Positions 29,977 through 31,080 are shown, counted from the first letter of the stretch. The stretch is DNA of 64,000 nt from Parachlamydiales bacterium (GCA_963765145.1 CAVXVG010000021.1:160001-224000); one strand, 5' to 3'. Numbers and translations: made by a program. The notes: a model not told the origin generated them from the sequence alone.

Positions 29977-31080
29977 ATGTCTTTAGGAGTGCACGGTCAG
30001 GGAGAGGGGTTATCTAGGGCAGAAGAGCTCAACGTTATAGATCCTCCTACATCTAGCAAGAAAGCAGAAGCTGCTAACAATCAAAATGATGTAGAACTTT
30101 CTCTGGTGTTGACTTCAAAAGAGCCAGACCCCCTAAAAGCTGCAGATGCCGCAGCGCGAAAGAGGCTCGAAAGCCAATTTTCTCCTCTTCAAAGGCTTGC
30201 CCCAGGCCTTGATTTAACCGAGGTGCAACCTGGCATTCACTCTAGGAAGCTTGAAGGTGGCACAAGAGGAGTTTATCTCATCGATAAAGGGACTGCTAGA
30301 GTGGTGATTAAACCCCCTGACTCGTTTGGCGGGTCTTCTCTCTTCGGCATTATGTCGACGAAAATGCTAGCGAACTTGAAGGCAGTGGTACCGAAGTCTG
30401 AGCTGATTGAAGAGGAAGGCGATGCGGCAGAGCTGAGAAGAATCACATCATCGACGCCTGATGTTAAAAAATTTATAGCGATGGAAAAAGTTGAAGGGAC
30501 TGCATTAGATGCTTTGCGCGAAGCAGATAAGGGTCGGTTGCTGTCAAAGGATCAACCTTTTTTTAAGGAGATGGGATACCTGTTTTCTTTAGATCATCTG
30601 CTCAGTCAAACTCCCGACAGGCTGAACAAAGATCGGTTTAATGGGGGGAACTACATGCTCACCGCCGACCATCTTGTTGCAATCGACAATCACACAGACT
30701 TGGCACAAGGGAATGGGAAACTTACGTCGGGGCTCGAGGCATTTAAAGACGTTGAGTTTCTGCCGAAGGCTCTTCAACGCCTTAATCTTCCCTTTCCCGC
30801 TGTTGAGGGTGATCCTTTCTACTCAAATAAGTTTAAAGAGGGGGTCGCAGAAGGCATTCAGACACTTGCAGCGACATTTACACGCACAGTGGATGGGAAA
30901 AAGGAAGTTAATAGCGAAAAAATAAGGGAGTTTGTTGTTAAATCTGAAGTTCCTGCTAAATTTATAGATCAGGTGGTAGAAAATCTAGAAAGGAGAATGG
31001 TCGTTATTATTGAACTTGCGAACGATAGCATGTATCATTTAGAAGGTAAGGAAGCGCAAGGGTGTTGCATCGTAATGTGA
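29977..31080 (+). CDS. Atypical kinase (actin-fragmin/PI3-PI4 kinase-like) with C-terminal CaaX box
   Basis: GGTRGVYLI, VVIKP, AMEKVEG, LDHLLSQTPDRL, NGGNYML, LVAIDN; ends GCCIVM. Confidence 0.75.
   Translation: MSLGVHGQGEGLSRAEELNVIDPPTSSKKAEAANNQNDVELSLVLTSKEPDPLKAADAAARKRLESQFSPLQRLAPGLDLTEVQPGIHSRKLEGGTRGVYLIDKGTARVVIKPPDSFGGSSLFGIMSTKMLANLKAVVPKSELIEEEGDAAELRRITSSTPDVKKFIAMEKVEGTALDALREADKGRLLSKDQPFFKEMGYLFSLDHLLSQTPDRLNKDRFNGGNYMLTADHLVAIDNHTDLAQGNGKLTSGLEAFKDVEFLPKALQRLNLPFPAVEGDPFYSNKFKEGVAEGIQTLAATFTRTVDGKKEVNSEKIREFVVKSEVPAKFIDQVVENLERRMVVIIELANDSMYHLEGKEAQGCCIVM

Follow-up and report, generated by a model that had tools for sequence, protein, structure and literature searches.

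Our analysis of a 64,000-nt stretch of DNA from a Parachlamydiales bacterium (the window; GCA_963765145.1, CAVXVG010000021.1:160001-224000) points to an atypical kinase of the actin-fragmin kinase (AFK) family that carries a putative lipidation signal at its C terminus and is encoded directly upstream of a gene for a small partner protein. The kinase open reading frame (29,977-31,080, + strand) encodes a 367-aa product, P0001, whose C-terminal end is KEAQGCCIVM. We propose that this kinase is injected into a eukaryotic host, lipidated there and directed at a cytoskeletal subunit, with the partner binding it to restrain or escort it; taken as a whole, we hold this chain of steps tentatively, as one that falls somewhat short of probable.

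The assignment to the AFK family comes from profiles and from the predicted fold. Searched as a single sequence, P0001 has no match in Pfam, NCBIfam, PADLOC or the PDB, and in Atlas it matches unnamed clusters and one cluster containing PI3_PI4_kinase. A phmmer search of 1.84 billion representatives returned 10 proteins including the query, and hence nine homologues. A profile of these 10 proteins matches 1cja, the AFK of Physarum polycephalum, in the PDB (E 2.9e-22) and no other entry at E below 1; 1cja is also the sole significant PDB sequence match for a profile built from close homologues only (E 1.5e-9) and for a 38-sequence family profile (E 2e-29), the latter giving no significant match to PI4KIIα, CtkA, HipA/HipT or MavQ in the PDB. 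Among the 38 family members, 16 are matched by Pfam Act-Frag_cataly (PF09192; E up to 0.1, with P0001 by itself unmatched), three, weakly, by HipA_2 and two, also weakly, by PI3_PI4_kinase (PF00454; best E 0.0049). An AlphaFold2 model of the kinase (pLDDT 82.6, pTM 0.79) has disordered residues at both ends (1-48 and 358-367) around a kinase domain that spans about residues 50-355 (30,124-31,041, +). Foldseek, which had been suggested as a check in the preliminary description, finds a kinase fold with 1cja first (E 1.5e-8, TM 0.55/0.61) and PI4KIIα next (E 7e-5). A wide structural search (VIA) likewise puts 1cja at the top (Z 20.0, rmsd 3.3, 253 aligned residues, 15% identity), aligning residues 71-345 to AFK 58-343, followed by PI4KIIα (Z 12.4), CtkA (12.2), Vps34 (11.8), HipA (11.5), PI4KIIIβ (11.0) and HipT (10.1). 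The preliminary description had left the choice between an actin-fragmin and a PI3/PI4-type kinase; fold and motif support an AFK-family domain, and the PI3/PI4 half, with two of 38 members and a second-rank fold, is not supported as a family assignment. Only about 12 residues follow the kinase domain, which leaves no room for a kelch domain, which the AFK layout includes at its C terminus; P0001 is therefore a family member by domain rather than an orthologue of the Physarum enzyme. Since P0001 alone has no Pfam or PDB match and is 14-15% identical to AFK in structural alignments, the transfer of a substrate from AFK is weak.

The catalytic core (30,592-30,690, +) reads D206-H-L-L-S-Q-T-P-D214-R215-L...N222-G-G-N225-Y-M-L...A235-I-D237-N, with I236 before D237 and N238 after it. 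The D..L...DRL...N..N.ML...AID pattern described earlier is thus present at D206-D237, and it is conserved in alignments; its AFK counterpart in the profile alignments is D-x-I-V-N-N-S-D-R-L...N-L-D-N-I-M-L...I-D-S. In an 11-sequence alignment, D206, D214, R215, N222, N225, I236 and D237 never vary, and across 38 sequences each is conserved to at least 90%. Together with the β3 lysine, Lys112, the kinase keeps the catalytic Asp214-Arg215, Asn222/Asn225 and Asp237, plus an insert after the arginine; an arginine after the catalytic aspartate and a following insert are described by Scheeff and Bourne as AFK features (PMC1261164). By the alignment columns, K112 is followed by P-P-D115 (30,310-30,321, +). 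The αC helix that comes next (residues 120-133 in the model) has no glutamate in the close group, whereas AFK and most of the distant chlamydial homologues carry one. The five closest full-length sequences all keep D115, three residues after K112, and this aspartate may take the place of the αC glutamate as the partner of the lysine. Some atypical kinases are reported to work with a reduced or absent Lys-Glu ion pair (PMC1261164). The gene is under purifying selection, with dN/dS of 0.31-0.36 in two unsaturated comparisons. We consider it likely that P0001 is an active kinase.

The C-terminal tail, C363-C364-I-V-M-stop (31,063-31,080, +), is flexible in the model (pLDDT below 50) and has the form of a combined prenylation and palmitoylation signal; the CaaX with an adjacent cysteine that had been noticed earlier is there, as CCIVM. 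Three of the nine homologues, the closest ones, end in CCTIL, CCILM and CCVIL (41, 65 and 33% identical in the alignment, respectively), and the cluster represented by CCTIL keeps its tail in all six of its members. Both cysteines are fixed among the four tails, and the other positions vary within the CaaX rule: C-I-V-M, C-T-I-L, C-I-L-M and C-V-I-L each have cysteine at -4, an aliphatic a2 and an X that suits FTase or GGTase-I. By that rule, methionine at X favours farnesyl and leucine geranylgeranyl (PMC12609287). The preliminary description had singled out X = M as a mark of farnesylation, but the four tails end in leucine as often as in methionine (two of four each). The conserved property is therefore a prenylation signal and not farnesylation specifically. 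Inspection of the sequence upstream of the tail revealed no polybasic patch, which fits the adjacent cysteine as a second anchor.

Loss of the tail among homologues had been put forward as grounds for rejecting the lipidation reading, and here the outcome is divided, since the tail is kept in the three closest of the nine homologues and is absent from others. It is lacking in homologues P0007-P0011, in both copies in the same-genus genome G001 (which end in HRIFS) and in all 24 complete distant chlamydial homologues (two 3'-open sequences left out), from which we conclude that the tail is not needed for the function of the family. In the sequences compared, the CC-aaX tail is conserved and limited to one lineage. 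As to whether the tail was gained once, a quick tree groups the four tails with support of 82, and a careful tree does not resolve this grouping. The CCILM tail belongs to a 5'-truncated gene (L007/P0004), which lacks the N-lobe (L007:302-1104) and has an intact partner gene; the repeats upstream of it are also dispersed through our genome, and the truncation may be a real deletion or a misassembly at repeats. The overlap of the stop codon with a ribosome-binding-like site of the partner gene (see below) may help to fix the position of the tail.

We compared the tail with what chance would give in the same genome, using our own ORF calls (2,274 non-overlapping ORFs, each 100 aa or longer). Three of these ORFs, the kinase included, end in CC-x-[VIL]-[LM], against 0.012 expected from the internal frequency, and the same pattern occurs at none of the control offsets 1-10; the pattern was chosen post hoc, after the tails had been seen. 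The textbook pattern C[AVLI][AVLI]X is weakly enriched (6 versus 2.4 expected, P 0.03; offsets 1-10 give 0-6). Conservation among homologues is stronger evidence for the tail than this test. The two other CC-aaX proteins of the genome (G000), both unrelated to the kinase, are a TPR protein ending in CCVIL (C21:78137-79918) and a protein that is MORN-like by sequence reading and ends in CCIIL (C9:10485-11087); a further MORN-like protein (C21:13876-14394) and a 134-aa protein (C28:60763-61167) both end in CTIL. These four additional CaaX-tailed proteins form a candidate set of host-prenylated effectors.

Across the order, a DNA scan for CC-aa-X-stop gave matches in 71 of 201 Chlamydiales genomes. 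We examined 30 of the 96 matches listed in that scan, and at five of these 30 loci CC-aaX stands at the end of an open frame of 100 codons or more (background 1.7%). On this count of real frame ends (five of 30 loci, from the 96 matches listed), we mostly rejected the notion that Chlamydiales commonly carry CC-aaX tails; they do occur elsewhere in the order, though sporadically. Among the loci examined are unrelated chlamydial proteins ending in CCAIM, CCTIL, CCTVM and CCVVL (L041:1090-1515, L050:2-337, L058:787-1515 and L060:958-1515), none of which has a match in Pfam. In diverse chlamydial genomes, many of the non-coding matches (at the centres of L040-L069) have TG(C/T)TG(C/T)GC-A/G-AT-x-TT-A/G-TAA in common, a string that is possibly a promoter or regulatory motif.

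The partner gene (31,088-31,654, +) encodes P0002, a basic (pI 9.1), probably mostly helical protein of 188 aa and 21 kDa, and starts 7 nt after the kinase stop codon. That stop overlaps a ribosome-binding-like site, TGAGGA, which is followed by the 7-nt spacer to the partner ATG (31,078-31,087, +). Relatives share this layout, with TGAGAG, TGAGGA or TAGGAG over the stop and a spacer of 7-8 nt at L005, L006, L007, L008 and L009, which suggests translational coupling of kinase and partner. Homologues of the partner, 25-77% identical, lie beside the kinase in all six distinct close cassettes with known context, a count that leaves out P0005, P0007 and P0009-P0011. The two genes are arranged in tandem at 7-8 nt in our genome, L006/L008, L007, L002/L009 and L005, and head-to-head in L003. 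All four strong partner matches in 400 genomes of the order adjoin a kinase; besides these, there is a weak match in G270 (E 2.8e-4). In G001, kinase and partner are duplicated together, in two copies 770 kb apart, and a same-genus genome encodes the same protein as L002 of G001. The cassette sites are not orthologous: in G001 and G002, different genes come after the orthologue of the transporter upstream of our cassette, and the L006/L008 cassette adjoins genes that are 92-95% identical to genes on another contig of our genome, where the cassette is absent. Like the kinase, the partner is under purifying selection (dN/dS 0.22-0.30, two unsaturated comparisons), and it is conserved as well as the kinase or better, at 77 versus 64% and 51 versus 41%. 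Gene order and selection support genuine coupling of the 188-aa gene to the kinase gene.

What kind of protein the partner might be is less apparent from its sequence, which has no significant match in Pfam, NCBIfam, PADLOC, the PDB or Atlas; comparison of profiles detected no partner-kinase fusion. The preliminary description had called the 188-aa product a possible chaperone or partner of the kinase. The coupling holds in six of six cassettes, but a recognisable class I type III chaperone, which is a small acidic CesT-like protein, it is not, with its pI of 9.1 and no CesT-type Pfam match; all five of the further homologues compared likewise lack a CesT-type match. The partner also has no match to HTH or HipS families, and its N terminus has no polar extension (26th percentile). 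The kinase and partner differ in charge here (pI 5.5 and 9.1), but this complementarity fails across other pairs and was rejected as a general feature. From the linkage of the genes, it is rather more probable than otherwise that the partner binds the kinase.

Searches for further relatives added little to this set. Word-index protein searches recovered the query itself, previously known members and P0020 but nothing else, and no relatives were found in viral contigs and plasmids. The genome contains no second copy of the kinase or the partner gene, and scans for promoters and terminators gave hits at chance level only. A search for RNA data sets containing the sequence listed none. Three soil sequencing runs yielded only short matching pieces, none of which spans the tail.

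Of 400 Chlamydiales genomes (G094 left unscored), 28 encode more distant AFK-like kinases, mostly with a tightly coupled small gene. In a set of 29 kinase loci, from which five entries had been removed because they were duplicated, 3'-open or located too close to the end of a contig, 19 have a same-strand gene for 80-230 aa within -10 to +25 nt. A tight downstream gene for 100-230 aa is present at 15 of the 29, compared with 61 of 753 comparable genes in our genome, although related loci in the set are not independent. The partners of close and distant kinases belong to three or more families, among which no homology could be detected (hhalign probability below 2%); families A5 and A7 (E 0.03, probability 1.6%) give a hint of similarity at most. 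These AFK-like kinases, of 250-550 aa, are spread across many Chlamydiales families (L004, L010-L032 and L034), and at L018 and L023 kinase-like genes stand in tandem. In another bacterial lineage, an AFK-like domain is fused behind an eCIS core domain (P0011/P0019), an architecture that suggests delivered cargo.

The genome comes from a Chlamydiales-type MAG of 2.68 Mb that is 84.8% complete. It encodes the export-apparatus proteins FHIPEP and Bac_export_3, families that also match flagellar genes in controls, and ATP/ADP translocases, and this gene content supports the picture of an intracellular bacterium equipped with genes for type III secretion. We found no prenyltransferase β-subunit in the genome, a search in which control genomes were equally silent and the assembly is incomplete. 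Other genes in the window include two eukaryote-like ones, which encode a 370-aa U-box protein (20,998-22,110, -), a likely ubiquitin-ligase effector, and a 1,682-aa protein that combines TIR and NB-ARC with numerous TPR repeats (32,922-37,970, -). A DDE_Tnp_1-type transposase gene, split over two overlapping ORFs (26,071-27,277, +), lies 2.7 kb upstream of the kinase gene and adjoins a 119-aa, highly charged ORF with no family (25,560-25,919, -). Convergent with the partner gene is a 379-aa ORF (31,705-32,844, -) with a weak trypsin-like match (E 0.19).

We propose the following sequence of events. Type III secretion would likely deliver the kinase into its eukaryotic host. The N terminus (residues 1-48; 29,977-30,120, +) is predicted to be disordered (pLDDT below 50), is poorly conserved, and has a polar-over-hydrophobic composition that reaches the proteome's 96th percentile by a crude home-made score; we infer from sequence and model that it is a candidate type III secretion signal. 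To our knowledge, CaaX tails are read only by eukaryotic enzymes, and this, the disordered N terminus and the secretion genes are together the basis on which secretion is proposed. Host enzymes would then likely prenylate Cys364, as the CaaX rule suggests, and acylate Cys363. We regard a secreted and host-prenylated kinase as quite likely. Once anchored, the kinase is predicted to phosphorylate a cytoskeletal subunit at its membrane, with actin as the first candidate and tubulin as the second, by analogy with both characterised AFK-family enzymes: AFK phosphorylates actin (PMC4758236, PMC1261164), and PHS1 is reported to phosphorylate α-tubulin at Thr349 (PMC8783414). The kelch module of AFK and the phosphatase module of PHS1 are absent from the sequence of P0001, which counts against the proposal, and we see a cytoskeletal substrate as close to an even prospect, a shade on the lower side. 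Lastly, the 188-aa neighbour would likely bind the kinase and restrain or escort it, a role suggested by gene linkage.

Several of these steps could be right and the target wrong. An injected, host-lipidated kinase might act instead on a non-cytoskeletal membrane protein, such as a small GTPase or a trafficking factor at the inclusion or plasma membrane. The lipid tail would put the kinase beside prenylated GTPases, its identity to AFK is only 14-15%, and bacterial effector kinases are described as having very diverse targets (PMC9950578); we nonetheless think this unlikely, given that both characterised AFK-family enzymes act on cytoskeletal subunits and that the AFK match stands far above those to other kinases (Z 20.0 versus 12.4). 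A lipid anchor would also suit a lipid substrate, and the kinase could be a membrane-anchored phosphoinositide kinase like the palmitoyl-anchored PI4KIIα or Legionella MavQ. PI4KIIα, Vps34 and PI4KIIIβ are among its next structural neighbours (Z 12.4, 11.8 and 11.0), and K112-x-x-D115 presumably resembles the spacing in PI3K. AFK itself is described as having in common with PI3K the arginine after the catalytic aspartate and a flat face (PMC1261164). Yet AFK is much closer in both sequence and fold, and PI3_PI4_kinase matches two of the 38 family members (best E 0.0049) compared with 16 of 38 for Act-Frag_cataly, so that we rate a phosphoinositide kinase as distinctly improbable. We give about the same small weight to a kinase that, for want of the αC glutamate, is inactive or dormant alone, the partner being a co-delivered activating subunit, or that serves as a membrane-tethered pseudokinase scaffold. 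The glutamate is missing in the very group that carries this partner family, the partner is conserved as much as or more than the kinase (77 versus 64%, 51 versus 41%), and other effector kinases are reported to need allosteric activators (PMC9950578). Against this, the remaining catalytic residues are all kept, D115 or D116 could substitute for the glutamate, the partner has no polar N-terminal extension of its own (26th percentile), and a reduced or absent ion pair is tolerated by some atypical kinases (PMC1261164).

Two further alternatives concern the gene pair rather than the target. Within the bacterial cell, the pair could work as a toxin-antitoxin cassette like that of HipA, with the CaaX tail incidental or a late addition. 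Such a cassette of two genes would fit the variable chromosomal sites, the structural neighbours HipA and HipT (Z 11.5 and 10.1), the intact partner beside the truncated kinase in L007 (which may be an assembly error at repeats) and, among more distant homologues, the fusion of P0011 to an eCIS core domain. It sits poorly with four divergent sequences keeping a tail that obeys a eukaryotic rule, with the absence of any match to PADLOC or toxin-antitoxin families, and with the disordered N terminus, the kinase-first order and the lack of a recognisable DNA-binding partner, all of which misfit HipBA, where the gene order differs. We consider it very unlikely. Least probable in our estimation are two independent effectors that merely travel together. 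In G042 the two genes are divergent and do not form one operon, and hhalign detects no relationship between this partner and those of distant kinases (probability below 2%); but no strong partner match without an adjacent kinase was found in 400 genomes, and 15 of 29 kinase loci have a tight downstream gene for 100-230 aa versus 61 of 753, even if related loci are not independent. The injected, host-lipidated kinase with a binding partner, aimed at the cytoskeleton, is the reading that we prefer.

All AFK-family kinases characterised so far are eukaryotic and regulate the assembly of actin or microtubules through phosphorylation of the subunits; a bacterial effector version would offer a symbiont a direct route to remodel the host cytoskeleton and would provide a small, soluble handle on a family that has been little studied. 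In Legionella and Salmonella, bacterial proteins are known to be prenylated by the host, and five canonical tails in one chlamydial genome, three of them with the extra cysteine, suggest that it also arose in Chlamydiota. The kinase-plus-partner layout, with apparently unrelated partners in many chlamydial genomes, suggests that there are several new kinase regulators. A broader idea is that these kinases are an undescribed injected AFK-type family with regulators of its own, in which one lineage has added CC-aaX to be pinned at the inclusion or plasma membrane by host prenyl- and acyltransferases and blocks actin or tubulin polymerisation by direct phosphorylation; in this full form, we find it possible but doubtful. 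Were it true, bacteria would be using the AFK mechanism for the first time, and Chlamydiota would have their first set of host-prenylated effectors.

Older in silico surveys of CaaX motifs in bacterial pathogens reportedly exist and may list chlamydial proteins. Our literature searches, whose scope excluded most subscription papers, found nothing joining AFK to bacterial effectors and nothing on CaaX effectors in Chlamydiota; terms for AFK and CaaX are absent from the main text of a survey of the Legionella kinome (PMC9758233). A chlamydial preprint that mentions CaaX describes symbiont-encoded prenyltransferase domains that act on host GTPases (10.1101/2024.11.28.625222). An AFK domain is listed as a provisional singleton in an oral-microbiome preprint (10.64898/2026.09.18.752743), and an Orpheovirus protein is annotated with one, so at the database level the domain is not confined to eukaryotes. 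Taken singly, the parts of the system are of familiar kinds; in the literature that we searched, we found neither their combination nor the kinase-plus-partner cassette that recurs in environmental chlamydiae.

Of the known systems, the AFK of Physarum (1cja, PF09192) is the closest to the kinase, having the same fold, the same Lys, Asp-Arg, two-Asn and I-D motifs and the insert after the arginine. The chlamydial protein differs in being bacterial, in its 14-15% identity, in lacking the kelch domain and the αC glutamate, and in adding a CC-aaX tail and a separate partner gene. PHS1 of plants and green algae, which its describers place in the same kinase family, has an AFK-like kinase that is restrained by a dedicated regulator (PMC8783414); there the regulator is a fused MAPK-phosphatase domain, whereas here it would be a separate protein with no phosphatase match. 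PI4KIIα, Helicobacter pylori CtkA, HipA/HipT and MavQ have the same wider fold (Z 9.8-12.4) but are more distant than AFK. For the tail, Salmonella SifA is a host-prenylated CaaX effector, and C-terminal CaaX motifs, several per genome, are described for other intracellular bacteria in Legionella AnkB, LseA and the Pel/CMP set and in Salmonella GtgE (PMC13081727, PMC7542358, PMC13423502). The chlamydial kinase belongs to a different phylum and to the AFK family, and its CC-aaX form likely adds a second, acyl site. The tandem cysteine itself has eukaryotic counterparts: Candida Rsr1 ends in CCTIM, with putative farnesyl and palmitoyl groups and a localisation that depends on both cysteines (PMC7554666), and YKT6, with two cysteines before aaX, is described as doubly prenylated (PMC12609287), an alternative by analogy to prenyl plus palmitoyl for the chlamydial tail. 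The resemblance to Rsr1 and YKT6 would be mimicry of the motif only, the kinase having no homology to GTPases or SNAREs.
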